Shown piece after piece: positions 19,531 through 61,380 of a stretch of DNA of 64,000 nucleotides (the stretch's first letter is position 1; the number at the start of each line of letters is the position of its first letter). Source of the DNA: Candidatus Bathyarchaeota archaeon (GTDB lineage Archaea; Thermoproteota; Bathyarchaeia; Bathyarchaeales; Bathycorpusculaceae); contig OY970176.1 of the NCBI GenBank assembly GCA_963707955.1, positions 1,024,001 through 1,088,000 on the forward strand. The letters run 5' to 3'. Below the pieces are notes generated by a model. That model did no database searches. It was not told where the DNA came from and worked only from the letters and a program-made list of their open reading frames with translations. A program made the translations under genes and the position numbers.

Positions 19531-19543
19531 TCGCGCGCGCTAG
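19531..19543. repeat. Dispersed (GC)4 palindrome copy
   Basis: TCGCGCGCGCTAG starting 3 nt after the stop of 18998..19528. Confidence 0.85.
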
Positions 19544-19577
19544 AGAGCGTTCGACTGTCTCACAAACAGGGTGTGCG

Positions 19578-19889
19578 CTAAGATGGTTTGACTAGAACAG
19601 TGGCCCTCAGCTCCGCATACTTCTTTTCAATATCTTGCTTGAAAGCTGTGATTTCTGACGCGAGTTTCATCTTTGTTTCTGCTTCGAGACTCGATTTCAT
19701 GATTCTTTCATCAATCTTTTCAATATCATGCAAAGTGTTGTGTTTCATTTCTTCAGTCTTCTTCAACGTTTCCACCTTCTTTTTCTCAATGTCTGCCAAT
19801 CGACTTCTGACATCCACTTCTCTCTTGTGAAATTCTTCTCGTGTTTTTGTAAGCTTCTTCTCAAGCTCGAAGATCTCACTCACTTCCAA
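19578..19889 (-). CDS. Coiled-coil hypothetical protein
   Basis: E/K-rich heptad-like 103-aa ORF preceded by GGAGGA. Confidence 0.7.
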   Translation of the reverse strand: MEVSEIFELEKKLTKTREEFHKREVDVRSRLADIEKKKVETLKKTEEMKHNTLHDIEKIDERIMKSSLEAETKMKLASEITAFKQDIEKKYAELRATVLVKPS

Positions 19890-19977
19890 TCATCCTCCAG
19901 CATACTTCTAGGTCGTCGTCGAATAAGCTTTTCTTCAGGCCTGCCTGAAGCAAAGTCTATCCTATGCTTAAATAGCC

Positions 19978-20408
19978 ATGCGCACGCGAATTAAATAATT
20001 GCCTTAGAGCGCATGCATGAAGTGCAGCGCGCGCAAAACCAGAAGGGTTCATGCTCAAAGCGCGTCCGCGCTAACATGGAGACGCGAATTCGTCAAGGTG
20101 AGAGGGCACTCTCAAGACCGATACAGAGACCTTAGGACAGGTCGTTTCATTAGGAAGCCTTAGAGCGCGCGCTGGCCTTGTATGTTATCTCCATTAGTGA
20201 TTGCTTGTCAGGATGACGAACAAATATTACGGAACAAGCGCTGTTTTCGCACAAGTACTTAGCCTTGCGTGTGCCCTTTTTCAACGGTTTCCCACATTCT
20301 GGACAATTAACCATCTTCAAATTCCCTATTGGATAACTAAAGAAGATGATGTAAAAATGTTATGAATCTCGGATAGTGAAGGAAACTCTGCTTCTGCTAG
20401 CGCGCGCC
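19978..20408. repeat. Cluster of (GC)4 palindrome copies and decayed variants
   Basis: Perfect GCGCGCGC at 20027, 20165 and 20400; variants ATGCGCACGCG, GAGCGCATGCATG and AGCGCGTCCGCGCTA. Confidence 0.85.
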
Positions 20409-20445
20409 CAAAAGCTAAAAGCCAAGTGTTCAGAGAGAGTAAAAG

Positions 20446-20682
20446 GTGATTTGGATGCCTACGGCATATTTGTTGATAAATTCAGAAGAATATCACCCAA
20501 GGTTGATGAAAGCATTGAGGGAGATTAAGGGAGTTGAAGAAGCTTATCCTCTCTATGGCGTCTATGACATCATTGTAAGAACAAGAGCGGGTACTATGGA
20601 CAGGCTTAAAGAAATACATGACAAGATAAGGAGACTGGAGAAAGTTAGACAGACACTGACGATGATCGCGCATGAAGGATAG
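20446..20682 (+). CDS. Stand-alone Lrp/AsnC ligand-binding (RAM) domain protein
   Basis: PTAYLLIN...YGVYDIIV...KIRRLEKVRQTLTMI. Confidence 0.9.
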   Translation: MIWMPTAYLLINSEEYHPRLMKALREIKGVEEAYPLYGVYDIIVRTRAGTMDRLKEIHDKIRRLEKVRQTLTMIAHEG

Positions 20683-20688
20683 AAAAGG

Positions 20689-20700
20689 TAGCGCGCGCTA
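20689..20700. repeat. Perfect 12-bp palindrome TAGCGCGCGCTA
   Basis: Seen directly, 7 nt after the Lrp-domain stop codon. Confidence 0.9.
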
Positions 20701-20920
20701 GTAAGTAAGTAATTTCTGTGTCTGTTTGTTGTGTGTGACTCAGTCACTCTCACAGTCACAGGTTCTCTCAGACTCTCTCTCTTTGTGTGTCAGAGTATGA
20801 AGTAAGAGAGAGGTAGATAGAGAGAAAGAGTAACAGAAGAAGAAAAAGGGTGAAGTTTTATCCAACCAACCACACACCATTTGGGGAAAAACCTCGCACG
20901 CGCGCTACGAAGGGTAACGA

Positions 20921-21355: not shown

Positions 21356-21701
21356 GACGATTATTACTCATGGCTCTGCTTAATTGCATTTCGTCTGAGA
21401 ATAACTGCGAGGTAAAGGCTAATTATGACTATTGGGAGATCGCTCTATCTGCCAAGATACAGAAATGTTTCTTCCGACCACGTTTATGGACCGAGCTCGA
21501 CAAAATTCTACGGACTCAGTTCTGCTTTACCTGTTTGCAGAGTAGGCTTTGCAGACTGCAGATTCGTATAGGCGGGCTTACGAACAACCCCAGGAGAGGT
21601 GGAATGATCTGTTTCTAGCGTGCGCGCTCCTTGCGAGGCGCCGCGCGCGCTAAATGGGTTCAAGTCCAAACTTAAAGAATAGGGAAAAGCCATGTCCGAT
21701 A

Positions 21702-21935
21702 GGCGCGCATACGTGTTCCTAAATTCGGCTTTAGCGCGTATGCCTGTTCCTAAATTCAGTTCAAGAGCTGGCATGGCGTTTTGCGACGAGGGATTGTTAC
21801 TGTCATGGTTCGAGCCGCTTGCTCTCTTGCTCTCACGCCCTCCTCCCCGGGTATCCTATATGATCCAAATATGGTTCATGAGCAAAGTAGGACTAGCTGC
21901 TCCCCGAAAGAATTTAGGAACACGCTAGCGCGCTA
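21702..21935. mobile_element. Putative MITE-like non-autonomous element with about 25-bp terminal inverted repeats
   Basis: Left GGCGCGCATACGTGTTCCTAAATTC; right (reverse complement) AGCGCGCTAGCGTGTTCCTAAATTC; a second left copy 31 bp inward; no transposase. Confidence 0.55.
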
Positions 21936-21993
21936 ATCCTTATCCAAGATTAATAACGTTTTTCTCCTTTGCGTGCGTCAATAGAATGTTGGA

Positions 21994-29713: not shown

Positions 29714-29927
29714 CTAGCGCGCGCACCAGAATAAACACAACATTTCTTTGTTCAAGACGCCATTCCCTTCAAAGAATGTTTCATGAGCCATGCTGGAGAG
29801 CGATTTTTGGTCGCTCAGCTATACTCTTCAGATAGATGCACGCACCATTAAGCCTGTGAGTATCGGTGGTGAAGGTGTTGAGCCTGTTATCCAAGTCCAG
29901 CTTAGCGCGCGTGAACTAGCATGCGCA
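29714..29927. repeat. (GC)4 palindrome copies
   Basis: CTAGCGCGCGCAC (29714), TAGCGCGCGTG (29903) and CTAGCATGCGCA (29916). Confidence 0.8.
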
Positions 29928-29955: not shown

Positions 29956-30513
29956 TTGGCTATCTTTTGGAAAGAAATTAAGTGCGATGACTATTCCTTT
30001 AAGTACTTGACAACTCCATTTGCAAAACCTGGGTCACTCTTGTGGGAAAAATCTTTTATTCATAAGCCGTTAACCCTAGATAGTTTGGAGCGTTCGGAGG
30101 CTGCAGTTATAATCAGAGATGGCACGTGTAAACCGTCGAATGCTTTACATGTGTCAGGTCACGACAGTTTTGATTTTGGCAAGGGTTGTTTGGTTAGGCT
30201 GAAGTTGAAGGCTCTCCGATCAGGCGTATGGTTTCGGACGTTAAAAAGAATCGATCGAGTCCTCATTGACGTAACCTTGCAGGTTGCCAGCAGAATTCGA
30301 AGCCCAATCCTGTTGAAAACGCCGTTGCCCGTTGTGACACAGTCAAAAAACTCTTTGGCGCGCGCGCTGTTTGACGGCAACGCAAGCAAAAACTCATATA
30401 TTCTGTCAGAAGAAATGTTTCTTGGGTGGGGGTATCAATCTACTCACGGCGCACAAGCGAAGATGTCACTGTTATTCCTTACGCCGCAAATTCGACTTCA
30501 GATAGAGCTCTGA
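29956..30513 (+). pseudogene. Probably degenerate hypothetical gene (basic helical core LKLKALRSGVWFRTLKRIDR) containing a (GC)5 tract
   Basis: Protein-like central segment; GCGCGCGCGC at 30358-30367; flanking parts look non-coding. Confidence 0.35.
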
Positions 30514-33253: not shown

Positions 33254-36200
33254 CTAGCTTGTGAGTTTCGGGATTGAAGGTGTCGAGCCGCTTATCCACG
33301 TCCAACCCGAGAATTCATTGGTTACCAAGTTCAATGAGCTTTGCCACATCGAATTGCCGTCCATTCCTATTACCACTACGTTTAGTGTAGTGCCCGTCAC
33401 TGTGGCCGCGGGCGCGTTAGGCGTGGATCCTGAGGCAAGCACGGTCCAACCTTGCCAGCCTGAGTCGTTATACATGTCCATATATATGCTGTTATCGTCG
33501 CCTCTGACAACCACATACAGTGTGTCTGATGTCGCAGAAACCGCCAATGTTGGTGTAGATGGGGTTGACCCCAGCAGTAATGTCCATCCCGAGAAGGCAT
33601 CGTCTGTGAGATTCAAGGTTGAATACCATAGAGTATTGTTCATGTAGGCATCAACCGTACTGAAACCTCTGACGACTATGTGCAGTGTATTTCCGAGCAT
33701 TGCCACGGCAGGCGTGTCGCATGTGGTTCCTCCCGGCAGAGCCACCCAATCATTCCAGGTCTGAGTTAAGGTGTCGTATATACGGTAGTATATGGCATTG
33801 TCAGAACCCCTGACCATCAAGGCTAAGGCAGTGCCGTTAGCAGTTAGCGTTGGTGGTGAGGGCGTCGAGCCACTTATCCACGTCCAACCCGAGAAGCTAC
33901 CATCGCTTTGGTTAATCCAGCTGAACCACAGGCTATAGCCGTCCATTCCACGGACAATGAAGTATTGCGCGCCTGAACATATAGTCGTGGCGGGACTGTC
34001 GCCAGTGGTGCCCGATGGAACCACATTCCAGCCACCCCAGACTGAAGAAGAGAAGTACCTGTAGTAAAGCAGATTGTTGTCTCCACGAACGACCAAGCTT
34101 GTATTTCCAAAGTCAGCTGTTATCGTCCCAGGCCCACCTATGGTGGCCGTTGTGGATGCGGTGATCGAGTTGACAAAGGCAATGGAACCTGTATCGCTTG
34201 ACCACTGCAAGAATACATAGCTAGGGTTGCCCGTCGCACTTATCGGAAGCGAACCTGCATCCTCCCAAACGTTAAAACCCGTGGGAATAGTTGAACCGCC
34301 TCCCGAGGGAGAAACGGCGAAAGAAACTTGGTATTGAGTCACGTAATTTCCTGTCACTATTGCCGCGGCCGTTACGGTTATCGGTGAAGCTGGCCCGATC
34401 ACACTGTCAAGTCTGAACTGCTCGCCAGAAACGCTGCTTGAGACCATACTCTCGTAGGCGTAGGTTGCTAAGTCGCTGCTATTAACCCAAAGGCTGTCCG
34501 GCAAGCCAGAATAGGTAATCGCCGAACCGTTCACGGTCACTACGGTGCCGGTCGCGGTGATGTCAAGGCCTGTCACCGTGAAAGTGACGTAGTACTCCGT
34601 AACGTAATTGCCGGTTACGCTTCCGCTGCCAAGTATGGTTATGGAGCCATTTTGAATGCCTGACAGGCCGCCAGTAGACGTCCATGCGTACCGTTCAACG
34701 TCAGCCGTGACGACTAGAGAAGAAGCATAGGTGAAATTGTAAACGTCGCCCGAGTTAGCCCAGAACGAAGTGCCAAGCCGATCATAGCCAGTCCCGTTAA
34801 CTGTTACAACAGTTCCACTGAAGTCAGAGCCAACACCAGACTGAGCAAAAGTCACGTAATACTGAGTCTCGTAGGTCCCAGTAACCGTTTCAGCGCCTGA
34901 AACAGTGAACGGCGAAGACTCGTTTGCGCCTACGAAGATGTACTGCTTAACGTTTGCGGTGACGAGCAACGGAGAGCTGAAGCCGAAATTGTAAACGTCG
35001 CCCGAGTTAGCCCAGAACGAAGTTCCACTCCTGTCGTAACCTGTCCCGTTGATAGTCATTAGATTAGCAGAGTAATCTGAGCTGACACCAGACTGGTTGA
35101 AGACGATCCAGAACTGCTCCTGCCAACCGAAGATTATGGTGTGATTAACCACCACAGTCGAGAAGACGTAGCTGGTTCCAGGAGTAGATGATCCTCCATC
35201 AACGCTGTAGCCAGTGCAGACCCATTGACTAATGTCAGGCACAGTTTCAGTCGGACTAGTAACATTAGCAGAGAAGTCAGTGCCGTTGTCAACCCAAGCC
35301 GAAGGAGTAGGCGTGTCTTGAGCGCTGGTAACAGCGATGTACCACTGAGTCTTGTAGGTGCCAGTGATCGTGGCTGAACCGTTCACAGTGTAGAAAGAAG
35401 AGGAAGCATTCACCATGACAAACACGTACTGCTTCACGTTTGCGGCTACTAACAGAGGTGTCTGGTACACAAAGATGTGAAGAGATGCGTTGTCCCACCA
35501 GAACGACGCCGGAAGACTGGTAAAATCATAGTCTGAACTGTCTATAGTTACCACAGTGCCGGTGAAGTCAGAGCCAACACCAGACTCATTAATCGTAACG
35601 TTAAACTGGGTCACGTAATTAGCGGTCACCGTTTTACCACTGTCCATCATAACAGTTGTCGAAAGCGAGCTCGGACTCGTTATCTCGCTCATGTTGCCCG
35701 TCGTCCAGCTCGTGAAGTTGTACCTTGAAGAACCGGTTTCGTTCGCAAACTGACTTGTCGAAATAGAAGCAAAAGTGCTTGCATTGTACCAGCCTTGCCC
35801 ACTCGGAGAATCAACATTGGAAGGACTCGTTACGACGGTCAAGTAATACTGGGTGTAGTACCTGCCAGTAACGGTCTCAGCACCTGAAACAGTGAACGGC
35901 GATGACTCGTTGACACCTGTGAAGACGTATTGTTTGATGTCTACGGTGACGACCAGTGGAGAGTTGAAGGTGAAATCATATACGTCGCTTGAATTAGCCC
36001 AGAACGATATGCCAAACCGGTCATGATCAGTTCCGTTAACCGACACAACAGTTCCACCGAAGTCAGAGCCAACACCACTCTGAGCAAAAGTCACGAAATA
36101 CTGAGTCTTGTAAGACCCAGTAACCGTCACAGCCCCAGCAACAGTCAAAGTTGTGTCAGTAGAGTTGCCTGACACCCCCGTCAGAACATACTGCTTAACA

Positions 36201-45200: not shown

Positions 45201-48200
45201 TTCCCAGAGAAGTCTGTTCCGACACCAGACTGGGCGAAAGTGACGAAGTACTGAGTCTTGTACGTGCTGGTCACTGTGGCTGAACTAGACACTGTGTAGG
45301 GCGAAGAAGCATTCACGCTGACAAGCATGTACTGCTTCACGTTTGCACTCACGACGAGAGGCGACTGATAAACAAAAGTGTGAGACGAGCCAGCATCCCA
45401 CCAGAACACAGCAGAGGAAACGTTGCCAAGGTCATAGTTCACCCCCTCAACAGTGAGAAGAGTACCAGTAAAATCACCGTTGGCGCCCTTCTGACCGAAG
45501 GTGACCTGATACTGAGTCACGTAGTTTCCAGTTACCGTCACTGGACTTGTCACGTTTATGGGTGAAGTTGGCCCGGTTACGTTGTCAAGTCTGAACTGCT
45601 TGCCAGAAACGTTGCTTGATACGGTCGCTCCGTAGCTGTAGGCCACCGAGTCGCTGCTGTTAACCCACATCGAGAACGGCAAGCTACCATAGGCCTCAGT
45701 TGAACCATTAACGGTTACGATGGTTCCGGTGGCCGTTCCATCTAGGCCAGTCTCTCCGAAGGTGACGTTATACTGGGTCACGTAGTTCGCTGTTACCGTC
45801 TTGGCTTCATCCATCAGAACCGTCGTAGACAACGAGCTTGGATCAGCAATCTCGATCATGTTGCTCGTTGTCCACCCGCTGAAGCTGTAACGCGAAGAAC
45901 CAGACAATATATCAACGTATTGATCTGTTGATATTGAAGCCAAAGAACTCGCGTTATACCAACCCTGTCCAGTCGGACTGTTCACGCCAGACGGAGACGT
46001 ATCAACTGTCAGATACCACTGCTCAGTCCAGTCAAACTCAATCGTATGATTAGTCACAACACTGCCAAAAGACACAGAGCCCCCAACAGGCAGAACGACA
46101 CCATCAACAGTCAAACCAGTCAAGTTCCACTGCTGAGCGCCAAGAACAACCACGTCCGGATTAGTCACTGAAACAATGAAGCTACTGCTAGCATTAACCC
46201 ACTGAGAAGACTCAGTAGGACTACCATGAAGACTAGTAACAGAAATGTACCACTGCTCAGTCCAGTCAAACTCAACAGAATGAGCACTGGCTACACCAGT
46301 AAAGCTTACAGAGTTATTCAACGTCGCAGGCAAACCGTCAATCACGAGGCCAGTCAGGTTCCATTGATGAGTCGAATCAACCACCTCTGGAGCCGTCACT
46401 GAAACAGTAAAGTTGCTGCCAGCATCAACCCAACCTGAAGAAGCCGTGGGACCACCATGAGCACTCGTAACAGTGACGTACCACTGAATCTTGTAGCTGC
46501 CAGTAACAGTCTCAGCACCCGAAACAGTCAACGGTGAGGTCTCATTGGCACCTGTCAAAGCGTACTGCTTGACGTTCGCAGCGACAATCAGAGGAGAGTC
46601 AAAGTTGAAGGGTATGCTCGCTCCACTATCATACCAGTCTGAATAACCAGCACGGTCATAGCCAGTTCCATTAACCACCATAACGTTTCCGCTGAAGTCT
46701 GAGCCAACACCTGTCTGAGCAAAAGACACGTAATACTGAATCTTGTAGGTGCCCATAATTGTCACAGAGCCTGTGACCGTCAGCGGTGAAGTCGCGTTCA
46801 CACTGTCAACTATGAACCTTACGCCAGAAACAGTGCTTGAAACGTTGGCATAACCGAAGACGAGAGAGCCACTGCTGTTAACCCACAGGCTGTAAGGCAA
46901 GCTCGAGTGAGTTATCGCCGAACCGTTAACAGTCACAACGGTCCCACTTGCTGTCCCGTCAAGGCCAGACTCAGCAAAGGTAACGTACCATTGAGTCTTG
47001 TAGGTGCCCATAATCGTCTGAGCGTCAGTCACCGTTAGGGGCGAGGAAGCACTCAGGCCAGAAAGCATGAACTGTTTGTTAACCGCGTTGCTTCCAACTA
47101 TGCTCTCGTAGTTGAACACCAGCACGTCGCTGTCGTTGACCCACAGGCTATACGGCAGATCCAAAGCCCCTTTTGCGGTAGAGTTCACCGTCACGACGGT
47201 TCCGGTCGCAGAACCGTCGAGGCCGCTCTGGGTGAATGTCATGTACCATTGGGTCTTGTAGACGCCAGTTGTCGTTTCACTGGCTGAAACAGTGAACGGT
47301 GAAGTTGCATTAGCTTCTGTTAAGACGTACTGTTTAACGTTCACAGTGACAACTAGGGGAGAGCTGAAGCTAAAGTTGTAGATGTCACCAGAATCAGCCC
47401 AGAAACTAATTCCAGTCCTGTCATACCCTGTGCCGTTAACTGTCACCACAGTCCCAGAAAAGTCAACGTCTACACCCGATTGAGCGAAAGTGACATAGTA
47501 TTGAGTCTTGTAGCTGCCAGTAACAGTCTCAGCACCTGAAACAGTCAACGGTGAAGACTCATTAGCAGTTAGAAACACGTACTGCTTCCCAGAATCCACT
47601 GACAACGGAGAAGCATAACTGAAAACATAATTGTCTCCACTGTCAGTCCAAAAGGAAATGCCGCTCCTACCATAACCCGTCCCGTTGACTGTTACAACGG
47701 TACCAGAGAAGTCAGTGCCAACACTGGACTGAGCAAGAGTCACGTAGTACTGAGTCTTGTAAGTGGCTGAAGATGTCCCTGACGCCAGTATAGGCGAACT
47801 GAGACCAGAAACTCCAGTCAGAACAAACTGCTTACCTGCACCGCCTGAGACTGTAGCTGTCCAAGAGAATGAGGTCCCATTGTCAACCCAAATGTTGCTG
47901 ATATTGAAGTCAGTGAAGACATAGTTAGTTGCTCCAACACTAAGAACCGTGTTAGAACCAGCATCACTGTCCAACCCAGACTCAGTGAAAGACACCAAGT
48001 ACTGAGTACCATAAGTGGCTGCGTCAGTCCCTGGAGCCGTTATAGGTGAAACAAGACCTGCATTGTCTCCAATGAAATTGAACCGCTCACCTGTAACCCC
48101 TGCGACAGTAGAGGCCCAGCTGAATGTGGTTCCATTATCAACCCAAACGCCAGTGGGCAAAGCATCATAAGCATAGTCTGATCCTCCCAACGTAAGAACA

Positions 48201-49684
48201 GTGTTGCTACCAGCATCGCTGCTTATCCCAGTCTGTTGGAATGACACTTGATACTGATGCGTCCAAGAAGCAGTCTCATTGACCGCGCTGTTCATAGTCA
48301 CCTCAGCCGGGTTAAGCAAGGTAGTGTTGCCGTCAGAACCCGTTCCAGTCCAGCCGTTCCAGACGTACTGCTCACCACCTCCAGCAGAAGGAGCGGTAGC
48401 AGAAATCGTCACCACTGAACCATTATCATACCAGTTGTCTCCAACGCTTGGTGAGGTCGTTCCAAAGTCTGTGGACATAGTTAACTTGTACTGAATCACG
48501 TAGTTTGCCGTAACAGTCTTGGCTCCATCCATTAGAACCGTCGTTGACGGCGAGCTTGCGTCTGTGATATTCGGATCGCCTGTCCAGCCTCTGAAGTCGT
48601 AACGCGAAGAACCCGCCACAATGTCAACGTCCTGAGGCGTTGATATCGTGGCCAAAGATCCTGAGTCGTACCAGCCTTCTCCACTTGGAGAGTTAACTCC
48701 AAGAGGGCTCGTTTCAACAGTAAGGTAGTAGCCTCCATAAACCGTGAATTCTTCCTGATACCAAGATACCGAGTTTTGATCTGCGAAGAGGTAGCAGGAT
48801 ACGTTGTCGTCGGCAATGAAGATTTGCGGGCAGGCTTCGGAATTCGTCAGGATAGGCGAATTTGGACACTCAGCGTAACCGCTTGTTACACTGGTTGAAA
48901 CGAACGCGCCTACCTCCCATGGCCCAGTGTCTGACGGTAGGGCTTCACAGAGAAGCCAATAGTGCCCGTCGCGGTACATGACCGTCGGAAATGACATGTG
49001 ACGCAACGGTGATGACGTCGGACATGACATTACAAGAGTATCATTTTCATGGGCTAGGTCTGTGATTGAACTGGAGTTTCTCGCATAAATCGTCCAGGTT
49101 TCGCCGGTGTTGTTTCCGTCTGCCCAGAACAGATACCAATTGCTGTCGTTAGGGTTTAACCAGACGAACGGGTTAGTCCACGGGTCATCGGGACTTGTTA
49201 AAAGTGTTTCTTGATAAGTGAAGTTTATTCCATCAGTACTCGTCCAGCGTTCAACGTCCTTGTTGGTTATGTTGTTCAGGAACATCTCGAAAACGCCGCC
49301 TGTGTAGACAACGGAAGGCGTGCGAAAGCTGCCGTTTGTTGAAGCCAAAACTGGATTAAGAGAGTATGGTGTCCAAATTCCTGTTATGCTGTCTGAATAG
49401 TAGAGGCTAATGTTGTTGCCTTCGCTGTCAGAATCGTACGCCAAATAGGTCCTGTTTGACCCGTCTATCGTTAAGTTGCACTGCACGATGTTGGTCGTAT
49501 GCGCAACGTCGAAGCCATGTTGATCTGTAGGGTTCCCAGAAATCGGATTAGATGACCCTGACATATTGTACCACCTGAGCGGCGGGTCCTGTGCCATCGT
49601 TCCCAAGCAGAAGCTCGCAAGCAGGAGCAACGCGCAAGATACGAATATGAAGGAAACAATTCGAGAAGATTTCCACCGTTTCAT
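33254..49684 (-). CDS. Giant secreted surface protein (about 5,476 aa from MKRWK; ORF extends to 49786): signal peptide, GH43/GH32-like propeller, about 55-60 Ig-like repeats, C-terminal PLL-like lectin propeller
   Basis: Uninterrupted 16.5-kb ORF; basic plus hydrophobic N-terminus; NPVL/SPIL propeller motifs; roughly 80-aa repeats ending TG.YKTQ or FDWTEQ; six VRG.D...W.GW...G.T repeats at the C-terminus. Confidence 0.9.
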   Translation of the reverse strand: MKRWKSSRIVSFIFVSCALLLLASFCLGTMAQDPPLRWYNMSGSSNPISGNPTDQHGFDVAHTTNIVQCNLTIDGSNRTYLAYDSDSEGNNISLYYSDSITGIWTPYSLNPVLASTNGSFRTPSVVYTGGVFEMFLNNITNKDVERWTSTDGINFTYQETLLTSPDDPWTNPFVWLNPNDSNWYLFWADGNNTGETWTIYARNSSSITDLAHENDTLVMSCPTSSPLRHMSFPTVMYRDGHYWLLCEALPSDTGPWEVGAFVSTSVTSGYAECPNSPILTNSEACPQIFIADDNVSCYLFADQNSVSWYQEEFTVYGGYYLTVETSPLGVNSPSGEGWYDSGSLATISTPQDVDIVAGSSRYDFRGWTGDPNITDASSPSTTVLMDGAKTVTANYVIQYKLTMSTDFGTTSPSVGDNWYDNGSVVTISATAPSAGGGEQYVWNGWTGTGSDGNTTLLNPAEVTMNSAVNETASWTHQYQVSFQQTGISSDAGSNTVLTLGGSDYAYDALPTGVWVDNGTTFSWASTVAGVTGERFNFIGDNAGLVSPITAPGTDAATYGTQYLVSFTESGLDSDAGSNTVLSVGATNYVFTDFNISNIWVDNGTSFSWTATVSGGAGKQFVLTGVSGLSSPILASGTSSATYKTQYYVTLAQSSVGTDFSGTVVTVNGTGYGRSGISFWTDSGDNYVFSYASPLSVDSGKQYVFLTANESSPLTVSGAETVTGSYKTQYYVTFAQSGVDVDFSGTVVTVNGTGYDRTGISFWADSGDIYNFSFSSPLVVTVNVKQYVLTEANATSPFTVSASETTTGVYKTQWYMTFTQSGLDGSATGTVVTVNSTAKGALDLPYSLWVNDSDVLVFNYESIVGSNAVNKQFMLSGLSASSPLTVTDAQTIMGTYKTQWYVTFAESGLDGTASGTVVTVNGSAITHSSLPYSLWVNSSGSLVFGYANVSSTVSGVRFIVDSVNATSPLTVTGSVTIMGTYKIQYYVSFAQTGVGSDFSGNVMVVNGTGYDRAGYSDWYDSGASIPFNFDSPLIVAANVKQYALTGANETSPLTVSGAETVTGSYKIQWYVTVTSAHGGPTASSGWVDAGSNFTVSVTAPEVVDSTHQWNLTGLVIDGLPATLNNSVSFTGVASAHSVEFDWTEQWYISVTSLHGSPTESSQWVNASSSFIVSVTNPDVVVLGAQQWNLTGLTVDGVVLPVGGSVSFGSVVTNHTIEFDWTEQWYLTVDTSPSGVNSPTGQGWYNASSLASISTDQYVDILSGSSRYSFSGWTTSNMIEIADPSSLSTTVLMDEAKTVTANYVTQYNVTFGETGLDGTATGTIVTVNGSTEAYGSLPFSMWVNSSDSVAYSYGATVSSNVSGKQFRLDNVTGPTSPINVTSPVTVTGNYVTQYQVTFGQKGANGDFTGTLLTVEGVNYDLGNVSSAVFWWDAGSSHTFVYQSPLVVSANVKQYMLVSVNASSPYTVSSSATVTSTYKTQYFVTFAQSGVGTDFSGNVMAVNGTSHDRNGTSFWADSGDLYNFAYSNPLSVNAGKQYALTSVNVSSPLTVSAATTVTGSYKTQWYMSFAQSGLDGSATGTVVTVNGTTLPFGSLPYSVWVNDSDVLAFNYESIVASSTANKQFILAGVNASSPLTVTGAQTVTGAYTVQYYVTFAESGLDGTAAGTVVTVNGSAITYSSLPHSLWVNSSDSLVFNYANVSSTVSGTRFIVDSVNATSPLTVAGPLMVMGNYLTQYYISFNVSGVDSDFSGNVMTVGATGYDRSGHADWYDNGSSITFAYLSPLDVNSGKRYVYISQNATSPLTASMAETVTGTYKTQYYVIFSQSGVGSDFSGDVMLVDSVNYSRAGNSGWYDNQSSVTFSFYSPLVVNSSERYVFVSMNETSPLTVSSAETVTGTYKTQWYISVTSLHGSPTESSQWVDDGSSFNVSVINPDVVVPSAHQWNLTGLIVDGTPQTLANSVSFGSVTANHTIEFDWTENFYITVNANGHGSPTEVSTWVAAGSNFTVSVTNPDVVVAFEHQWNLTALTVDSVPQTLNNTVGFASVNASHTIVFSWTEQWYLTVDTNPSSVNSPTGAGWYDTGVTAHVSTDQYVDVVPGSSRYRFNSWAGASGTFADATVTMDSAKTATANYIEQYYVTFAQSGVGVDFVGAVMNVSSVNYTRSGYSNWFDSGTIVSFNYYSPLVVNATNQYVWGSTSGLSTLQSDSITITASGSVVGNYGLQNAITFNQFGLTSDFTGTVLLVDGTPYNVTDLPVSFLWSINSVHTFAYQSPLVVGANSKQYVWTGTTGLSSLQGDSINVTTFGSITGTYKTQYYVTFAQSGVGVDFLGSVMNVDLTDYGRSGHSGWYDSAANITFFFYSPEVVTADEKQYVVTDVNASSPLTVSAAQTVTGTYKTQYWIVFAESGVGSDFSGSVMNVNGTDYGRSGLSGWYDSGASLPFSYYSPLNVNSGERYVLLTVNETSPPTVSRAETVTGSYNTQYYLTVVTSPSNVDSPSGQGWYNASTFASISTSQLANETSSSRYNFTGWTTGNMTEIASPSSLSTTVLMDEAKTVTANYLTQYNVTFIQSGVNSDFNGTVMTVNGTGYDRNGVAFWAYAGDVYNFNYSTPLLVSANQKQYVFVSANASSPYTVSGSATVTGTFKTQWYITFAQSGVGSDFTGTVMTVNGTDHDRNGTSFWADSGDVYNFSYASPLNVTLNVKQYAWIYTGGLSGVQSGFISVSSSGSIIGHYATQYNVTFAQSGLDGTATGTVVTVNGSAITHSSLPYSLWVNSSDSLIFGYANVSSTVSGMRFIVDSVNASSPLTVTGPVTVMGNYLTQYYITFAVSGVGSDFSGNVMTVGATGYDRNGNSDWYDNGSSITFAYLSPLNVNSGKRYVYVSQNATSSLTVSMAETVTGTYKTQWYVTVTSAHGSPTEASQWVDDGSSFNVSVTNPDVVVPSANQWNLTGLIVGGVPQALANSVFFGSVTTNRTIEFDWTQQWYISVTSAHGSPTEASQWVNDGAAFSVSVTNPDVVVPSAQQWNLTGLTVDTVPQTLNNTVSYASVHAAHTIEFDWTEQWYVTFNKSGVGSDFTGTVVTVDSVDYGVAGLPVSFWWDNGSGHSFSFASPLVVDVNKQYSWSSTSGLSSFQSGSLTVTASGSVVGNYIVQNQVTFDQLGASSDFNGTVLIVDGTSYNVTDLPVSFSWSIYSVHTFAYQSPLAVGVNSEQYVWTGTTGLSSLEGGSINVTTFGSITATYKTQYYVTFAQSGVGSDFSGDVMNVGGVNYTRVGHSGWYDNQSSVTFSFYSPLVVNSSERYVFVSMNETSPLTVSTSETVTGTFKTQWYITVTSAHGSPTASSGWVDAGSNFTVSVTNPDVVVAFEHQWNLTGLKVDGVPQALANSVSFVGVAINHTVEFDWTEQWYVSVTSAHGNPSESSQWVDDGAAFSVSVTNPDVVSPGAHQWNLTGLAVDSVPQTLSNTVSYASVHASHTIVFSWTEQWYITVTSAHDTPTASGWVDNGSGFAASVSSPADVVAGDHQWVCTGYSIDGGASTPGTGYTFTSVQANHTILFGWSEQFWIAVTSAHDSPTASAWVDSSGSFNTSVTSPTEVVSGDHQWVCTGYKLDNGSLTVGTSYNFTSVASAHSIEFDWKEQFYLTVTSAYDTAGGAGWYDNGSTAYATLTDGTVPGSVGTQYVFTSWGADASGTNYAQSNAITMNGPKTATATWTTQYLVTYSATGNVLPVTVPSDEWVNSSGSAVGVFPSQVTVGGTRCNFVSDNRTVITSPSLIVGTYQTQYFVTFAQSGLDGTASGTVVTVNGSAIIYSGLPYSLWVNSSDSLVFIYANVSSTASREQFRLDNVTGPTSPINVTSPVTVTGNYVTQYQITFGQTGANVDFTSTLLTVDGVNYGLGNISSAVFWWDAGSSHTFVYQSPLVVTANVKQYLLVIANASSSYTVSGSATVTGTYVTQWYISITSAHGSPTEASQWVNDSAAFSVSVINPDVVVVFEHQWNLTALTVDTVPQTLNNTVSYANVNASHTIVFSWTEQWYITVTSAHDTPTASGWVDNGSSFAASVSSPADVVAGDHRWVCTGYSIDGGASAPGTGYTFTSVQANHTILFGWSEQFWIEVDSAHDSPTSSGWVDSGGNFTASVTSPADIVVNVTQWVCTGYIVDNGSLTAGTSYNFTSVASAHTIEFDWKEQFYVTFNKSGVGSDFTGTVVTVDSVDYGVAGLPVSFWWDNGSGHSFSFASPLVVNANKTYSWSSTSGLSSLQSGTLPVTASGSVVGSYIVQNSITFDQVGVSSDFNGTVLIVDGNSYNVTQLPVSFTWNIGSNHTFAYQSPLVVGANSEQYVWTGTTGLSSSQSGTITVTTFGSITGNYKTQYYVTFAQSGVGTDFSGSVMNVGGTDYNRSGYSNWYDNGANITFFYYSPLVVTADEKRYVVTDVNASSALTVSAAQTVTGTYETQYYVTFAQSGVGVDFSGTVMTVNGVDYGSGGVSFWADSGNVSTFNYASPLLVSADVKQYVLTGVSGNSTDTTLTVAGAVTVTGSYKTQYFVTFAQSGVGSDFGGTVVSVNGTDHDRFGISFWANSSDVYDFTFNSPLVVTVDIKQYVFTGVNESSPFTVSGAETVTGRYYTQYYLTVVTSPSNVDSPSGQGWYNASTFASISTSQFANETGSSRYNFTSWTTGNMSEITSPSSLSTTVMMDSGKTVTANYVTQFNVTINESGVGSDFTGTVVTIDSSDYDFTSLPASFWWDNASLHIFVYQTPLLVAANVKQYVFVMVNASSSFYTVNGSATITGTYKTQWYIAVTSAQDTPTPSAWVDNGTDFSANVTSPTETVPDISQWVCTGYSVDGGSSTPGTSYVFSTVVVNHTIIFGWQEQFWIVFNQSGVSSDYSANLMTINGTGYDRSGTSFWANSGDVYNFGFSSPLLVTANVKQYIFVGANESSPFTVSGAETVTGTYETQYYVTFAQSGVGSDFSGTVVTVNGTGYDRLGTSFWANSGDVYNFTYASSLVVTADVERYAWTSTGGLSGIQNGSITILGSGSVTGNYVTEYYVTFTVTGLDITATGTVVTVNGSAITYSGLPDSLWVNSSDLATYAYESMVSSSVSGEQFRLDSVIGPASPITVTAAAIVTGNYVTQYQVSFAVSPSGGGSTIPTGFNVWEDAGSLPISATGNPSYVFLQWSSDTGSIAFVNSITASTTATIGGPGTITADFGNTSLVVRGDNNLLYYRYFSSSVWGGWNVVPSGTTGDSPATTICSGAQYFIVRGMDGYSLWFSWINQSDGSFSGWTWISGSTPSPPTLTANGTALALMVRGSDNAIYYRIYDTLTQTWNDWVALPGGTTCDTPAVAMLGNTLHIVVRGFSTVDAYMNNTLWYSTLNLTDDAFSGWTLLLGSTPSTPTLAVSATSDTLYVVVRGDDNSIYMDMYNDSGWQGWTVLASGSTPNAPAATVTGTTLNVVVIGMDGNSMWQSSLNLVTNEFSGWTWISGSTPSIPKLTS
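34110..48730 (-). repeat. Intragenic array of roughly 240-255-bp modules with near-identical dispersed copies
   Basis: Approximate near-identical pairs: 37930-38200 with 45330-45600, 37360-37690 with 39000-39330, 36950-37150 with 40310-40510, 35690-35860 with 42095-42265, 40985-41340 with 44240-44590. Confidence 0.9.
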
Positions 49685-49822
49685 TCCAATCACTCTTAAA
49701 ACCAAACTTATTCTGTAATCTTCATATTTAACAATAGCGAGAGCTAACAAATGATCTGCTGATGTTAAGTTGATATATGACTTCATCGGCTCTTCGCGTA
49801 TGCAAGTCGCAAGTTCAATACT

Positions 49823-52126: not shown

Positions 52127-52138
52127 TCGCGCGCGCTA
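52127..52138. repeat. (GC)4 palindrome overlapping the wecB stop codon
   Basis: TCGCGCGCGCTA; the CTA is the minus-strand TAG stop. Confidence 0.88.
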
Positions 52139-53218
52139 TTCACCGATTTCTCTCACCAGTATTTGGACTATCCTTTTCCCTGCCTTGCCATCGCCGAAGG
52201 GGTTTTTCCATCGATTCTTCCTGTTTAGCATGAGCTCCGTTTTCTTGACAATCTCATCAGGATCCGCGCCTGCTAAAACATTCGCTCCAACCTCTACGGT
52301 CTCGGGTCTTTCAGTGTTGTATCTCAAGGTTACGCATGGAACACCCAAGATGCACGTTTCCTCTTGAACACCGCCGGAATCTGTCAGAACGAGTTCTGCG
52401 TTACTTTCAAGGTAGAGGAAACTCAAGTAGTCAAGAGGGCTGATCATTTTGACACCCTTCGCTTCGAGCTTGAATCCCTTGAGTCTTTTCTTAGCTCTCG
52501 GGTGGACCGGATAGATAACGGGAATGGCGAATCGTTCGTTGACCTTTTCCAATCCTTTCAATATGCCTTGAAACCTTTCAACATTGTCGACACTTTCTTG
52601 ACGATGAATAGTAACGAGGAAGTAATTCTTGGGCTTTATCCCAAGCTTGCGGCGTTTGATTCCCTTGTGCGTGGCTATTTCTAGATTCTGGTGGACAGCG
52701 TCCACTATTGTGTTGCCAGTTACGAATATTTCTTCTTTCGGAACCCCTTCAGCCAGCAATGTGTTCTTTGAGTTTTTGGTGGGCGCAAACAGCAGGTCTG
52801 AGCAGTGGTCTGTCAAGATTCTGTTTATTTCTTCGGGCATATGCCTGTCATAGCTTCTTAAGCCCGCTTCGACATGGCCGACTTTGATGCCGAGTTTTGC
52901 TGCGGCTAGGGCACCTGCAAGAACGGTGTTGGTGTCACCTTCGACTAAAACAACATGGGGTTTTTCTTCGAGGAGAACCTTCTCTATCCCGATAAGCATC
53001 TTTCCTGTCTGTTCTGCGTGTGTTCCAGAGCCAACGTCAAGGTTATGCTTGGCTTCGGGTAGCCCGAGCTGTTCGAAAAAGATTTTGTCCATGTTATATG
53101 AATAGTGTTGCCCCGTGTGTACGATGAAGAAGTCCAAATCAAGTCGGATGCATTGTCGGATAATCGGGGAGAACTTGATGATTTCAGGTCTGGTTCCGAG
53201 TATGATTGCGATCTTCAT
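52136..53218 (-). CDS. wecB: UDP-N-acetylglucosamine 2-epimerase (non-hydrolysing)
   Basis: GTRPEIIK, HTGQHY, GDTNT, HVEAGLRS, TDSGGVQEE, TERPE and NPFGDG motifs. Confidence 0.96.
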   Translation of the reverse strand: MKIAIILGTRPEIIKFSPIIRQCIRLDLDFFIVHTGQHYSYNMDKIFFEQLGLPEAKHNLDVGSGTHAEQTGKMLIGIEKVLLEEKPHVVLVEGDTNTVLAGALAAAKLGIKVGHVEAGLRSYDRHMPEEINRILTDHCSDLLFAPTKNSKNTLLAEGVPKEEIFVTGNTIVDAVHQNLEIATHKGIKRRKLGIKPKNYFLVTIHRQESVDNVERFQGILKGLEKVNERFAIPVIYPVHPRAKKRLKGFKLEAKGVKMISPLDYLSFLYLESNAELVLTDSGGVQEETCILGVPCVTLRYNTERPETVEVGANVLAGADPDEIVKKTELMLNRKNRWKNPFGDGKAGKRIVQILVREIGE

Positions 53219-53221
53219 TCT

Positions 53222-53233
53222 TAGCGCGCGCTA
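53222..53233. repeat. Perfect 12-bp palindrome TAGCGCGCGCTA
   Basis: Separated from the wecB ATG by only 3 nt. Confidence 0.9.
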
Positions 53234-56217: not shown

Positions 56218-56229
56218 CTAGCGCGCGCC
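56218..56229. repeat. (GC)4 palindrome copy
   Basis: CTAGCGCGCGCC upstream of metK. Confidence 0.85.
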
Positions 56230-58534: not shown

Positions 58535-58547
58535 CAGCGCGCGCTAG
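58535..58547. repeat. (GC)4 palindrome copy
   Basis: CAGCGCGCGCTAG between the SDR and nitroreductase genes. Confidence 0.85.
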
Positions 58548-58605: not shown

Positions 58606-59334
58606 ATGATAGTTATGCCTGACGTCTTGAAAATTATTCAGCAGAGACGGTCAAGCAGGGTTCCTTTTAATCCGAATCATCCGGTTTCCAACAAGAACCT
58701 GAGGCAGATCCTCGAGGCGGCGCGTTGGGCGCCGACGGCTCACAACATGCAGAACTTCGAAATTCTTGTCGTTGATGACAAGGAGGTTCTGGAGAAGATT
58801 GGAAAAATCAAGTCTCGTGTGTCGGAAGCATTCATCCGTGAGAACTACCAGCAGCTGTCATTCTCGGAAGAGGAGTTGCTTCAGAAGAAGGTCGGGATCC
58901 TCGGCACCAATTTTCCGCCGGATTGGAGGGATCCTGCCAAGCTGGACAAGGTTGTCCGTAAGAGTGCGCCTTCGCCCCTGAACCAGCGCATCAGAGGTAG
59001 TCCGCTGCTGCTGATAGTGATTTATGATTCTAGGAAGAGAGCGCCTGCCTCCGAGGGGGATGTTTTGGGTTTCATTAGCTTGGGTTGTGTAATGGAGAAC
59101 ATGTGGCTTGTGGCCCAGTTGTTTGGGATAAGCGTTCACATATTGAGTGTGTTCAGCGGAGATGTCGTGGAAAAAGAGGTGAAGCGGATTCTCAACATTC
59201 CTGAATCCATGAAGATTGCTTTTGCCATGCGTCTGGGATACCCCGTCTCTAGGCCGGCTAAACACCTGAGAGTGCGCCGTGACGTGGAAATGCTTACGCA
59301 TCATAATGGGTTTGGGAACAAGGGCTTCAGCTGA
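58606..59334 (+). CDS. Nitroreductase family protein
   Basis: RRSSR, AARWAPTAHNMQ, ENMWL and LGYP motifs. Confidence 0.9.
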   Translation: MIVMPDVLKIIQQRRSSRVPFNPNHPVSNKNLRQILEAARWAPTAHNMQNFEILVVDDKEVLEKIGKIKSRVSEAFIRENYQQLSFSEEELLQKKVGILGTNFPPDWRDPAKLDKVVRKSAPSPLNQRIRGSPLLLIVIYDSRKRAPASEGDVLGFISLGCVMENMWLVAQLFGISVHILSVFSGDVVEKEVKRILNIPESMKIAFAMRLGYPVSRPAKHLRVRRDVEMLTHHNGFGNKGFS

Positions 59335-59431
59335 GAAAACCTTGTCTTGTTTTCACGATTAGCTGGTTTGCGGAGAGGAAGTTTGAGGCGTTGTTGGAAT
59401 GGGAGTGAACTTGCAAGTTTTAGGTATGCAA

Positions 59432-59443
59432 TAGCGCGCGCTG
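59432..59443. repeat. (GC)4 palindrome copy
   Basis: TAGCGCGCGCTG between convergent genes. Confidence 0.85.
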
Positions 59444-59515
59444 GAAAGGTTGCGCTGGTAACCAGTCTTCTTGTTCAAGTTTGCTGTAAGGTGTCATCTG
59501 TGCCATGCATGTTGA

Positions 59516-59989
59516 CTATTGCGTGGTTTTTGCCTTTTCCAGGTGCATTTCTTCGAGTTTTCTGTATTTTTTCGCGCGCTCTTCGAAAAGATTCGATATG
59601 CTGGTTCTGTACGCTCTGAACTCTCGGCATATGTCAGATTCTGATTCGTCATCCATTTCCCTGGCCATGGACCCGTGACTTTTGGCCTTTTGAGCATCGA
59701 CATCGCTGATCTTTCGTTCACTGAACGCTATTGCTGCATAATGCTTTTGACGTCTGGCCACGGTTTCAACATCCTTTGCAAGCCTAGCGTACAGCCTTGC
59801 TTTCTGTCTCTCAAGTTCCTTTCTTTCCTTCGGTGTCATCCTAAGGTTAGCCTCCGTGAAGCCCAATCGGAACAAGGCCTCATGGATACCGTGTTTTGCA
59901 CCGGTTGTGTCTCCTTTCTCTAAACACATCAGTGCATAATGCAGTGCGCCCAAGACTGGTTGCGGGTCTAGGGTCAAATCTTTCGTCAT
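59516..59989 (-). CDS. Helical hypothetical protein
   Basis: 157-aa charged ORF with a GGTGA RBS upstream. Confidence 0.65.
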   Translation of the reverse strand: MTKDLTLDPQPVLGALHYALMCLEKGDTTGAKHGIHEALFRLGFTEANLRMTPKERKELERQKARLYARLAKDVETVARRQKHYAAIAFSERKISDVDAQKAKSHGSMAREMDDESESDICREFRAYRTSISNLFEERAKKYRKLEEMHLEKAKTTQ

Positions 59990-60083
59990 TTTTTCACCGT
60001 ATCTTCAGATTTAAGCTATATTAAGTCTGAAACATTTAAATTTTTCAAGGAGCACTAAGACTTTTTCCACGTATCATTCAACG

Positions 60084-61337
60084 CTAGAAGTAGGGCTGAT
60101 TTTTCGCAAGGCTCTCTGTGAGGTCCGAGTAGGTGTCGATGATGACTTCTCTCAAATCCGTTCTCTGGCTTTTTTTCTCCACTCTTTCCCGCAGAATTTC
60201 AGAGAGGTTTCCACATTCTATCCTTCTCTGGATTATAGGGAGATATTTTTTTTCGTCTGCTGTGGCGTTCCCCAGAGCGACGTTGTAATAATATTCGCAG
60301 ACTCGACGTGCAGTCTCTCCGTGTGGATGATGAACGCTGGCCCTGAGTCCATTCATCATGATCGCGTTGAGATCCTGTACTAGGACTGTGTGAGGGAGAA
60401 ACTCTGGGTCCTGATTCATTAGTCCCCTCAGTACCGCTCTGATGAAACAGCTCAATGCGACGTCTGATTTGATGCATTCTTGCTCATCCATTATTCGAAT
60501 TTCGATGGCTCTTCTGTCGAACCTGAATATCACTCCTCGGCTGTTCACCCATTCCTTGTTCAGGACAAGCTTGTCAGCACCTGCGTTGGATAGATCGTCT
60601 GAGTACTTGCCTATAATGTTCGTTTTATACTGGCTGAATGAGGACGTGTATTCTGGAATCACGTCGCCGGTTACTGATGGGATTTCTTTTTGGTTTTGCA
60701 TGTAGAAGTACAGTCTGTTGTCGACTCCGTCTCCGAGCCTGCCCTCGTAGATTGGTGAAGAAGCGCTAATTGCGGACAAGTAAGGGCATATGTTTGCAAG
60801 CGTGTTGTTAAGCAGGATTGCGCTTTCTTCGTTTGAGTATGAGAGGTTGAGGTGGAAGCTCTGAATGTTGAGCCATCCGTGCCGTCTCAGATTGAAGATT
60901 TTGCCGTAAGCCTCGTAGATTTGTCTGTGGCGGTGGGGCCAAATTCCCGTTTCGTCGAGTTCTAGTAGTGGGTGCATGCCCGTTCCAAGAAGATGCGCGT
61001 GAAACTTACGTTGCAGGAAATCCTGAATCGTCAAGATAGTTTCCTGCATCGTCTCCTCAAACTCCACCGGCGTCTTGAACGGAGCGTTAGGCTTGAATTC
61101 CATGACGTGCAGCTGAAGCTCTTTGCCAAAGGTAAAGCTTGGCTGTCTTACGAAGTTGACAACTCGGCCATGGAAAGCCTTTATGATTTTGTCTACGATG
61201 GGCAATGCCTCAAGCGCGTCATTCACAATTGAAAACTCGTGCTCTGGACCTAGGACTTCCAAGGTCTTGTACGTGAAGGCTCCACTCTTGCTGAAGCTGT
61301 TCTCCATGATTGAATATAAAGCTACAATCAAACACAT
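60084..61337 (-). CDS. Glutamate--cysteine ligase family 2 (GCS2/YbdK-like carboxylate-amine ligase)
   Basis: GPEHEF, ELQLHVME, GTGMHP, SFHLN, SASSP and IEIRIMD motifs. Confidence 0.85.
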   Translation of the reverse strand: MCLIVALYSIMENSFSKSGAFTYKTLEVLGPEHEFSIVNDALEALPIVDKIIKAFHGRVVNFVRQPSFTFGKELQLHVMEFKPNAPFKTPVEFEETMQETILTIQDFLQRKFHAHLLGTGMHPLLELDETGIWPHRHRQIYEAYGKIFNLRRHGWLNIQSFHLNLSYSNEESAILLNNTLANICPYLSAISASSPIYEGRLGDGVDNRLYFYMQNQKEIPSVTGDVIPEYTSSFSQYKTNIIGKYSDDLSNAGADKLVLNKEWVNSRGVIFRFDRRAIEIRIMDEQECIKSDVALSCFIRAVLRGLMNQDPEFLPHTVLVQDLNAIMMNGLRASVHHPHGETARRVCEYYYNVALGNATADEKKYLPIIQRRIECGNLSEILRERVEKKSQRTDLREVIIDTYSDLTESLAKNQPYF

Positions 61338-61367
61338 TGTGCAAGTACGCAGGGTTACAAGGGAAAA

Positions 61368-61380
61368 GGCGCGCGCGCAT
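61368..61380. repeat. (GC)5 palindrome copy
   Basis: GGCGCGCGCGCAT directly downstream of the tRNA-Ala T-tract. Confidence 0.85.

Follow-up and report, generated by a model that had tools for sequence, protein, structure and literature searches.

A short GC palindrome at DNA joins in a Bathyarchaeia genome, and a transposon family as its candidate source

When transposons of the Tc1/mariner type move by cut and paste, they leave a footprint consisting of TA, the terminal bases of both element ends and a second TA. Such excision footprints, together with the deletions mediated by insertion sequences (ISs), appear to be the nearest known counterparts of a motif that recurs in a 64,000-nt stretch of DNA (the window) from Candidatus Bathyarchaeota archaeon (assembly GCA_963707955.1, contig OY970176.1). 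The genome under study (G000) is one contig of 2.35 Mb with 47.9% G+C, and the window covers its positions 1024001-1088000. The motif, hereafter the tag, is an alternating GC palindrome, (GC)4 or (GC)5, whose 8-bp form is GCGCGCGC. It lies where formerly non-neighboring DNA was joined: at deletion junctions, at the edges of replaced segments and at the ends of likeness between paralogues.

The tags resemble excision footprints in several respects. In particular, each tag reads as the outermost inverted-repeat bases of a transposon family fused head to head, it is mostly flanked by A...T as the elements are, and there are sites where, between preserved flanks, one allele carries an element and another a stub. 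In contrast to those footprints, the transposase here is IS5/IS1182-like, the IS630/Tc1-type domain (PF13358, Tc1/mariner type) was not found in the genus, and most new tags accompany the loss or replacement of 0.2-4 kb without an element in sister genomes. The transposon family shares with IS5/IS1182 and their MITEs (miniature inverted-repeat transposable elements) the DUF772 and DDE_Tnp_1 domains, a transposase length of 328 aa, ~24-bp terminal inverted repeats and the presence of short derivatives that are non-autonomous; it differs in that it falls below curated cut-offs, its termini of pure GC alternation are kept across subfamilies with 38-48% identity, and its copy in G000 is frameshifted. 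The differences from known footprints and IS deletions are the transposase family, the number of scars and the link to the loss of element-free DNA.

Three other systems are worth comparing. The cyanobacterial HIP1 (GCGATCGC) is also a short GC-rich palindrome, highly iterated in certain lineages only; however, HIP1 also occurs within genes, whereas here 66 of 419 loci lie in coding sequences (CDSs), and the motif sits at breakpoints without being conserved. Arrays of integron attC sites likewise contain short genes set apart by a palindromic element in accessory regions, but attC sites are longer imperfect palindromes than 8 bp, the motif is absent from most long-allele ends, and no integrase was identified (no search for tyrosine recombinases was made). 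In the linear replicons of Borrelia, telomere-resolvase scars are palindromic remnants at the internal junctions of shuffled DNA; the tags are similar remnants at joins, but they lack extended inverted flanks, and no resolvase was seen (no search aimed at one was made). In the literature searched, titles and the beginnings of abstracts contain no description of the motif, or of hundreds of such scars per prokaryotic genome; the term matches within PMC13343696 comprise one passage on IS1182 and nothing on footprints or Bathyarchaeia.

Abundance of the tag and its position at joins

A sequence-only reading of the window had listed 14 perfect cores, expected fewer than one by chance and proposed that they are recombination or insertion sites, or the scars of such sites, by which accessory genes are gained and lost. 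All 14 loci are present exactly where it placed them (16 overlapping matches to GCGCGCGC, all (GC)4-5), and 100 dinucleotide-preserving shuffles of the window yield a mean of 0.61 matches and a maximum of 4, with none at 16. Genome-wide, 464 overlapping matches form 419 loci, 374 of (GC)4 and 45 of (GC)5, compared to the 25-34 expected under Markov models of order 0-3, 108 under order 4 and 300 under order 5. Within intergenic DNA alone, 372 are observed versus 74 expected (order 3). The enrichment is mostly intergenic: 339 loci lie between genes, 14 at gene edges and 66 in called CDSs, in a genome of which 82% is called coding. All CDS and intergenic counts depend on our own simple dicodon gene caller rather than on a standard annotation.

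The lengths of intergenic alternating G/C runs (250, 120, 234, 102, 41 and 2 runs of 6, 7, 8, 9, 10 and 11 bp, respectively, and none of 12 bp or more) show a bump at 8 bp and a limit at 10-11 bp, which indicates a discrete unit of fixed size and rules out a microsatellite. An A occurs at position -1 in 241 of 419 loci and a T at +1 in 241 of 419, statistically independent of each other, giving the consensus a-GCGCGCGC-t. The flanks in the window are weaker than the TA or CTA and TA or TAG previously described as frequent: the full TAGCGCGCGCTA occurs at 2 of 14 loci (20689 and 53222) and AGCGCGCGCT at 5 of 14. Across the 419 loci, there is no conservation past position ±2, and 3 tags adjoin the core of an inverted repeat; a larger element hidden around the motif was rejected on both counts, and the tags are not merely the ends of intact elements.

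Along the genome, the loci form clumps (variance 10.4 versus a mean of 3.55 per 20 kb), most densely in accessory arrays of small genes where a motif follows almost every one or two genes, for example at 855-866 kb. At the edge of a tag-dense accessory array, an unannotated 315-aa open reading frame (ORF; 853339-854286) could encode an integrase.

Breakpoints were compared by chaining BLAST blocks over 400 kb each of two related genomes, G001 and G007, which are 91-95% identical to G000 at the DNA level and mostly collinear with it; a clean indel has one allele of at most 45 bp and another of at least 150 bp. Between G000 and G001, 9 of 29 clean indels carry at least (GC)4 where the short allele is joined, compared to 1.7% of random intergenic windows (binomial P ~1e-9), and 11 of 29 have (GC)3 or longer (3.9% in the control). 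A tagged short allele consists of the left flank, GCGCGCGC (at times with 1-5 extra bases) and the right flank, while the tagged long alleles, from 189 to 4089 bp, are ordinary genic sequence. The untagged indels carry classical signatures, namely tRNA-linked insertions and direct repeats of 9-17 bp. Considering all breaks, (GC)4 lies at the boundary of 15 of 46 between G000 and G001 and of 9 of 47 between G000 and G007 (control 9.1%). Tags also bound several replaced segments, in which both alleles are unrelated DNA.

The same position is seen among repeats within G000. Of 666 ends of repeat matches, 49 lie at most 12 nt from a tag, in one copy only for 41 and in both copies for 8; the chance level is ~1% by our own arithmetic from tag density. 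In base-level alignments of paralogues, homology halts exactly at the tag while the other copy continues. For example, the units at 20.0-20.7 kb of the window have three copies, each truncated by a tag at different points.

The direction of change was assigned by outgroups for two events and by a third close genome for three more. In the first event, a (GC)5 in G001 replaces 4089 bp with four genes (G000 1763331-1767419). This four-gene segment is collinear and protein-homologous in G000, G007, G009, G004 and G008, and the G007 stretch contains no motif; outgroup comparison indicates that the G001 (GC)5 is a derived 4.1-kb deletion. At the position of the G000 tag at 1768847, six other genomes hold extra DNA (~1 kb in G001, G007 and G003, 0.75-0.8 kb in G004 and G009, and ~11 kb in G008). 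The G001 tag of a further event (event 2) is derived, as the G007 DNA is homologous to the G000 long allele. Overall, several tagged deletions have occurred in each of G000 and G001 since their split, and both genomes are rich in the inverted repeats described below; none is found in 400 kb of G007, which has few.

These results bear on an integron-like explanation, in which a site-specific recombination system would move gene cassettes with the motif as its core site. Several observations resemble it: the arrays with a motif between nearly every one or two small genes, an indel (G000 1559003-1560752) whose long allele is flanked by the motif on either side and whose short allele has one copy, unrelated 1.07-kb segments that G000 and G001 carry between one shared pair of GC sites (C1 250446), and a gene upstream of metK in G001 that sits elsewhere, beside the motif, in another metagenome-assembled genome (MAG). 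However, the motif is at both long-allele ends in 1 of the 9 tagged indels and at neither end in 7, and one tag arose de novo at a deletion. Moreover, breakpoints lie 0-40 nt from the motif and not inside it (homology to G007 and G009 stops at such distances from the window motifs at 58537, 59434 and 61369), the motif is not conserved, and no recombinase gene is tied to the arrays, among searches that did not include tyrosine recombinases. To our knowledge, 8 bp is far below the length of any recombinase site. Cassette recombination is therefore very unlikely: the part of the sequence-only reading that made the motif a scar of gene loss is supported by the bare-motif indels, while the part that made it a recombination site is not. 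Its description of motifs that bracket genes was also overstated, as 285 of the 2117 intergenic regions of positive length hold one.

Once made, the motif is not maintained. Where blocks of G000 and G001 align, 4 G000 tags are conserved and 5 substituted, and 4 G001 tags are conserved and 10 substituted; in the comparison with G007, the corresponding numbers are 4 and 5, and 4 and 3. By our own arithmetic, ~56% of neutral 8-mers would be retained at 7% divergence. Among ~93%-identical genomes, the motif thus decays at least as fast as neutral DNA, which excludes a role as a binding or regulatory element or as a recombination site that is maintained.

The strong over-representation, the restriction to intergenic DNA and the alternating GC, which is the classical Z-DNA-prone sequence, could nevertheless suggest a selected or driven sequence, such as a HIP1-like palindrome of methylation and repair, a protein-binding or insulator site, or a Z-DNA element. 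In contrast to this expectation, decay is at or above the neutral rate, the motif is associated with breakpoints, its distances from the starts or stops of genes in G000 show no peak, and tandem, convergent and divergent spacers all hold the motif (0.73, 1.12 and 0.73 per kb); a promoter or terminator element was rejected on the latter two grounds. A drive by C5 methylases was also rejected: PF00145 has no match in G000 (other methylase classes were not searched), and its presence in 6 of 61 genomes is unrelated to tag counts. A selected or driven function is accordingly extremely improbable. The chromatin-protein and Z-DNA alternatives raised from the window sequence are largely refuted by the lack of conservation at ~93% identity, and the proposed HIP1 analogy fails on the placement of the loci and on PF00145.

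The tags are not confined to one assembly. Among the 61 genomes searched (labels G001 to G055 denote related genomes), the 10-mer AGCGCGCGCT occurs 114 times in G000, 7-92 times in all 10 other genomes of the genus, and 63, 53, 23, 16 and 11 times in G027, G034, G055, G031 and G029, which belong to other genera; most of the remaining genomes have 0-2 copies, and a reversed control pattern has 0-8. At the metK loci of relatives, 20 of 80 have at least one (GC)4 and six have 6-8, including MAGs from differently titled projects. Further, the locus at 56221 of the window is bridged by contigs of two other samples (0 differences) and by a 7.2-kb contig of another study, as judged from assembled contigs. 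Together, the bridging contigs and the recurrence in MAGs of different projects make an assembly artefact at joins untenable.

A transposon family with GCGCGC ends and the origin of the tags

The genus contains mobile elements whose ends carry the same sequence. MITE family 1 has at least 23 copies in G000, with lengths of 200-210 bp and inverted repeats that read (T)A-GCGCGC-AT/TA-GC.TGTTCCTAAATTC, with the element starting at GCGCGC. MITE family 2 starts with GCGCGC-TGGCTTGTCCCTAAATTC, and shorter derivatives are ~100-185 bp long. The IS copy in G000 (389080-390160, ~1.1 kb) has GCGCGC at both ends, flanked by TA on each side, around a transposase gene that is split by a frameshift, with DUF772 and DDE_Tnp_1 over two frames; of four long-range pairs of left and right inverted repeats in G000, it is the only one with a transposase. 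An intact 328-aa transposase is present in G009 (PF01609, 7.2e-25; PF05598, 1.2e-10). The nearest NCBIfam models are IS1182 (139 bits, cut-off 270) and IS5_4 (102.7 bits, cut-off 140); since both scores are below the curated cut-offs, the transposase is called IS5/IS1182-like and is not filed as a curated equivalog.

Related elements share these termini across subfamilies. G034, in a different genus and with 38% transposase identity, has two intact IS copies that end in GCGCGC, with arms of 23-34 nt that are 88-96% complementary, and an intact IS copy in G003 (48% transposase identity) has inverted repeats with GCGCGC ends. The related IS in tag-poor G041 ends in CGTGC...GCACG; an enrichment of CGTGCACG predicted from these ends is not seen (7 copies versus 5 for the control), but with a single IS copy the comparison carries no information. 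The inverted-repeat pattern AGGRACANGCNNGCGCGC has 38 matches in G000, 55 in G001, 14 in G003, 10 in G007 and 24 in G027 and none in 48 of 61 genomes, mostly tag-poor ones; its reversed control has none anywhere. MITE family 1 itself was rejected as a general correlate of the tags, as its DNA is confined to G000, G001 and G007, and G003 and G010 give no more than weak inverted-repeat hits. The IS5/IS1182-like transposase of the elements with GCGCGC ends is a candidate enzyme family that co-varies in part with the motif; PF00145 shows no relation.

Several sites are polymorphic for insertions. The G000 MITE at 1976044 and mini-MITE at 1936369 are absent from G007, and a MITE2 of G001 (C1, at 14.4 kb) is absent from G000. 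The empty site in G007 that corresponds to the MITE at 1976044 has no GC run, indicating that GCGCGC belongs to the element and not to its target. Elements and stubs alternate with intact flanks at two clear sites, where the direction may be either excision or insertion: the G000 mini-MITE (1936369-1936496) corresponds to AACGCGC in G007, and a 2.2-kb G001 allele that ends in an inverted repeat corresponds to CCCATC-GCGCGCGC-TGTAG in G000. At a third site, G001 has a MITE2 plus 96 bp, and G000 has a tag exactly where the MITE terminus meets the flank. Among the MITE flanks read, 13 of 16 on the left end in A and 9 of 14 on the right start with T.

Separate observations concern the same elements and repeats. 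Four copies of MITE family 2 (G000 564641, 669498, 734967 and 1730220) contain three tandem GCATATACA boxes just within the left inverted repeat. In G001 (C1 107467-116541, at G000 1924200), a 9-kb insertion lies within a MITE copy, and its ends are tRNA-like by eye. A 943-bp multi-copy repeat (G000 1731780-1732722) was considered as an IS and rejected; it is an internal repeat of a gene (G000 1731560-1736335) for a 1591-aa protein with many beta-propeller-like repeats, which appears as a multi-copy DNA repeat.

The tags are probably neutral junction scars, formed as fused terminal stubs after transposase cutting and end joining. The source would be the DDE transposon of IS5/IS1182-like type and its derived MITE families, at least two in number, all with GCGCGC ends that are mostly flanked by A...T. 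When DNA cut by the transposase is rejoined, a few terminal GC bases from either element end would be left in head-to-head fusion; from two (GC)3 ends, anything between (GC)3 and (GC)5-6 can result but nothing longer, in line with the limit seen in run length. An operon of Ku, LigD-type ligase and LigD-type polymerase, carried in the genus, could seal the ends. The surviving events would be the deletions and joins that spare needed genes, so that tags gather between genes and in accessory regions, and consequently seem to bracket cassettes. Kilobase-scale tagged deletions might arise through composite excision between two new elements, or through an element-adjacent deletion followed by excision, although neither route was observed.

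A number of observations weigh against this explanation. It does not account for the dominant class, kilobase-scale tagged deletions without an element in sister genomes: in 7 of 9 tagged indels, the DNA replaced is 0.2-4 kb long and element-free, the long allele has no run of at least (GC)3 in the 60 nt at either end, and no inverted repeat is seen there by eye. A simple excision footprint therefore fails for most new tags. Pure footprints, with intact flanks and no other loss, are rare (0 in the aligned blocks of G000 and G001 and 1 in G007), and the 419 tags far outnumber the elements. The third polymorphic site above has its tag in common between G000 and G007, and may equally be an insertion at a pre-existing tag. 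The flanks do not agree on a target-site duplication: TA borders the G000 IS at either end, but a G034 copy has TTC on its left and AAT on its right. The tag-rich genomes G004, G008, G031, G029, G024 and G055 have no transposase hit and no inverted-repeat pattern (except one in G024) with the queries used, although all six are draft MAGs, whose repeats often go unassembled; distant transposase homologues are found in the tag-poor G011, G014, G020, G041 and G044. Finally, we know of no IS4/IS5-type transposase that leaves element bases on the donor flanks.

Both candidate routes to the larger deletions predict that pure footprints are common; their rarity, along with the deletions of element-free DNA, makes a transposon-independent mechanism a live rival, if an unlikely one. 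Here, end joining would add a fixed, self-complementary GCGCGCGC filler at every join of two broken ends, through a LigD-type polymerase or another nucleotidyl transferase, and the ends of the transposons would look alike because the elements themselves inserted through or beside such joins. It would account for the tag that arose de novo at the 4.1-kb deletion, where four other genomes keep the segment and show neither motif nor element, for the 7 of 9 long alleles without the motif at their ends, and for the several events in which the tag abuts both flanks exactly. Moreover, G000 contains a suitable operon (957178-960233), in which Ku is confirmed (PF02735, 1.2e-40) and the LigD-type polymerase and ATP-dependent ligase are recognized by eye. 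Ku, however, is found in 12 of the 61 related genomes searched, among them the tag-poor G016, G026, G032 and G052, and was not found in the tag-rich G027 (98% complete), G034, G031 and G029; it was rejected as a correlate of the tags. Further, the 20-odd MITE copies all carry exactly (GC)3 fused to the inverted repeat, the same terminus occurs in three transposase subfamilies at 38-48% identity, as expected of element sequence, and at the site where one MITE is missing there is no GC run. We are also aware of no template-free enzyme able to add a fixed 8-mer, which counts against a filler.

A broader proposal, also unlikely, is that tags are made afresh at joins in DNA without any past transposon end, either by a transposase-derived activity that takes out arbitrary gene-sized segments and leaves a fixed 8-bp palindrome as the seal, or by end joining that adds a defined self-complementary filler. 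Fused transposon stubs remain the preferred origin.

Features of the window

The features are collected in Table 1. Twelve of the 14 loci lie outside any called gene, one touches a stop codon (52129) and one is in a weak ORF (21643), in agreement with the sequence-only reading, which had counted 13 as intergenic or touching a stop codon and one in a degenerate ORF. Its finding of no copy in the housekeeping region of the first 19 kb is true for (GC)4, which is absent from 1-19532, while three (GC)3 runs are present there (8759, 10177 and 12137). The decayed copies that it described are present as (GC)3 runs at 20900, 21622, 21928, 22486, 22783, 25858, 50930, 54381 and 55197, except that the run at 21928 is the right terminus of a MITE.

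Table 1. Tags, repeated units and transposon-derived features of the window (window coordinates).
Feature	Position	Strand	Remark
(GC)4 tag, intergenic	19533..19540		
(GC)4 tag, intergenic	20027..20034		
(GC)4 tag within repeated unit	20165..20172		paralogous copies (86 kb, 1823 kb) read GCTCGCGC
Repeated unit bounded by tags	20173..20399		copies at G000 86198-86469 and 1823033-1823282, each tag-truncated at a different place
(GC)4 tag, left edge of next unit in all three copies	20400..20407		upstream DNA differs in the 807-kb copy
Repeated unit with AsnC/Lrp gene 20506-20682	20408..20690	+	position of right-hand tag differs per copy (85.9 kb, 807.4 kb)
(GC)4 tag, full TAGCGCGCGCTA, intergenic	20691..20698		
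(GC)4 tag inside weak 88-aa ORF (score 12.9)	21643..21650		decayed copy ctagcgtgcgcgct at 21615-21628
Solo left inverted repeat of transposon family	21703..21726	+	GCGCGC ATACGTGTTCCTAAATTC
MITE copy, family 1, ~200 bp	21734..21933	+	left terminus decayed (GCGCGT, 21734-21739); right inverted repeat GAATTTAGGAACACGCTAGCGCGC ends at 21933
(GC)4 tag, intergenic	29717..29724		
(GC)5 tag, intergenic	30358..30367		
(GC)4 tag	52129..52136		1-nt overlap with stop codon of gene 52136-53218(-)
(GC)4 tag, full TAGCGCGCGCTA	53224..53231		6 nt upstream of start of gene 52136-53218(-)
(GC)4 tag	56221..56228		tag also at the corresponding place in G007; 1011-bp segment with a membrane-protein gene in G001
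(GC)4 tag	58537..58544		homology to G009 C20 begins at 58545, right after the tag
2-kb segment with genes 59516-59989(-) and 60084-61307(-)	59358..61389		G001 has a bare GCGCGCGC instead, next to tRNA-Ala
(GC)4 tag	59434..59441		other-strain contig leaves window sequence at 59432
(GC)5 tag next to tRNA-Ala	61369..61378		other-strain contigs leave at 61367 and 61381

The AsnC/Lrp gene encodes a 58-aa stand-alone ligand-binding domain (PF01037, 7.5e-11) and has three copies in G000, at 20506-20682 of the window and at ~85.9 kb and ~807.4 kb of the genome. At the 2-kb segment, whose two genes lie between the motifs at 59434 and 61369, the G001 junction reads GTTTTC-GCGCGCGC-TGGTGG; in G007, genes matching both of those in the segment are on another contig, with a tag at their edge. 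Beside the tRNA-Ala gene (61389-61465), G001 has an insertion of ~8 kb (C6 56183-64390) that duplicates a 45-bp piece of the tRNA region and looks like a tRNA-targeted integrative element. A nearby repeat (61643-61833) was considered as a MITE and rejected; it is a small CxxC protein gene family. The member in the window (61634-61776, minus strand) has paired Cys motifs by eye and other copies at G000 629199, 1679378 and 2311031, and many repeats of it occur in other genomes of the genus.

The remainder of the window contains five tRNA genes and a complete archaeal large-subunit rRNA gene (4718-7758), with tRNA-Thr (4264-4340) ~380 nt upstream; small-subunit rRNA has no match within the 64 kb, and the rRNA genes therefore appear unlinked there. 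The metK protein is 76-90% identical to MAG genes, mostly from Bathyarchaeia or Bathyarchaeota. A single 5510-aa ORF (33254-49786, minus strand) has a strong coding score and no (GC)4 inside it, as had been noted for this 16.5-kb gene.

Meaning for gene loss in uncultured archaea

The distribution of the tags carries a general caution, namely that over-represented intergenic palindromes should not be read as regulatory or recombination sites before a conservation test. The tags at element-free deletions also present a testable puzzle on transposases or on archaeal end joining; if the tag is in fact written de novo, every gene-loss event in these archaea would bear a readable and datable mark. 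If the tags are scars, each marks a past event of cutting and joining, and the 419 in one genome would constitute a map of gene loss and rearrangement in uncultured archaea, in which the state of decay gives relative ages. If the transposon origin is true, a single IS family would be able to shape at least a third of the structural differences that separate genomes at ~93% identity, as reflected by the tagged G000-G001 breaks.

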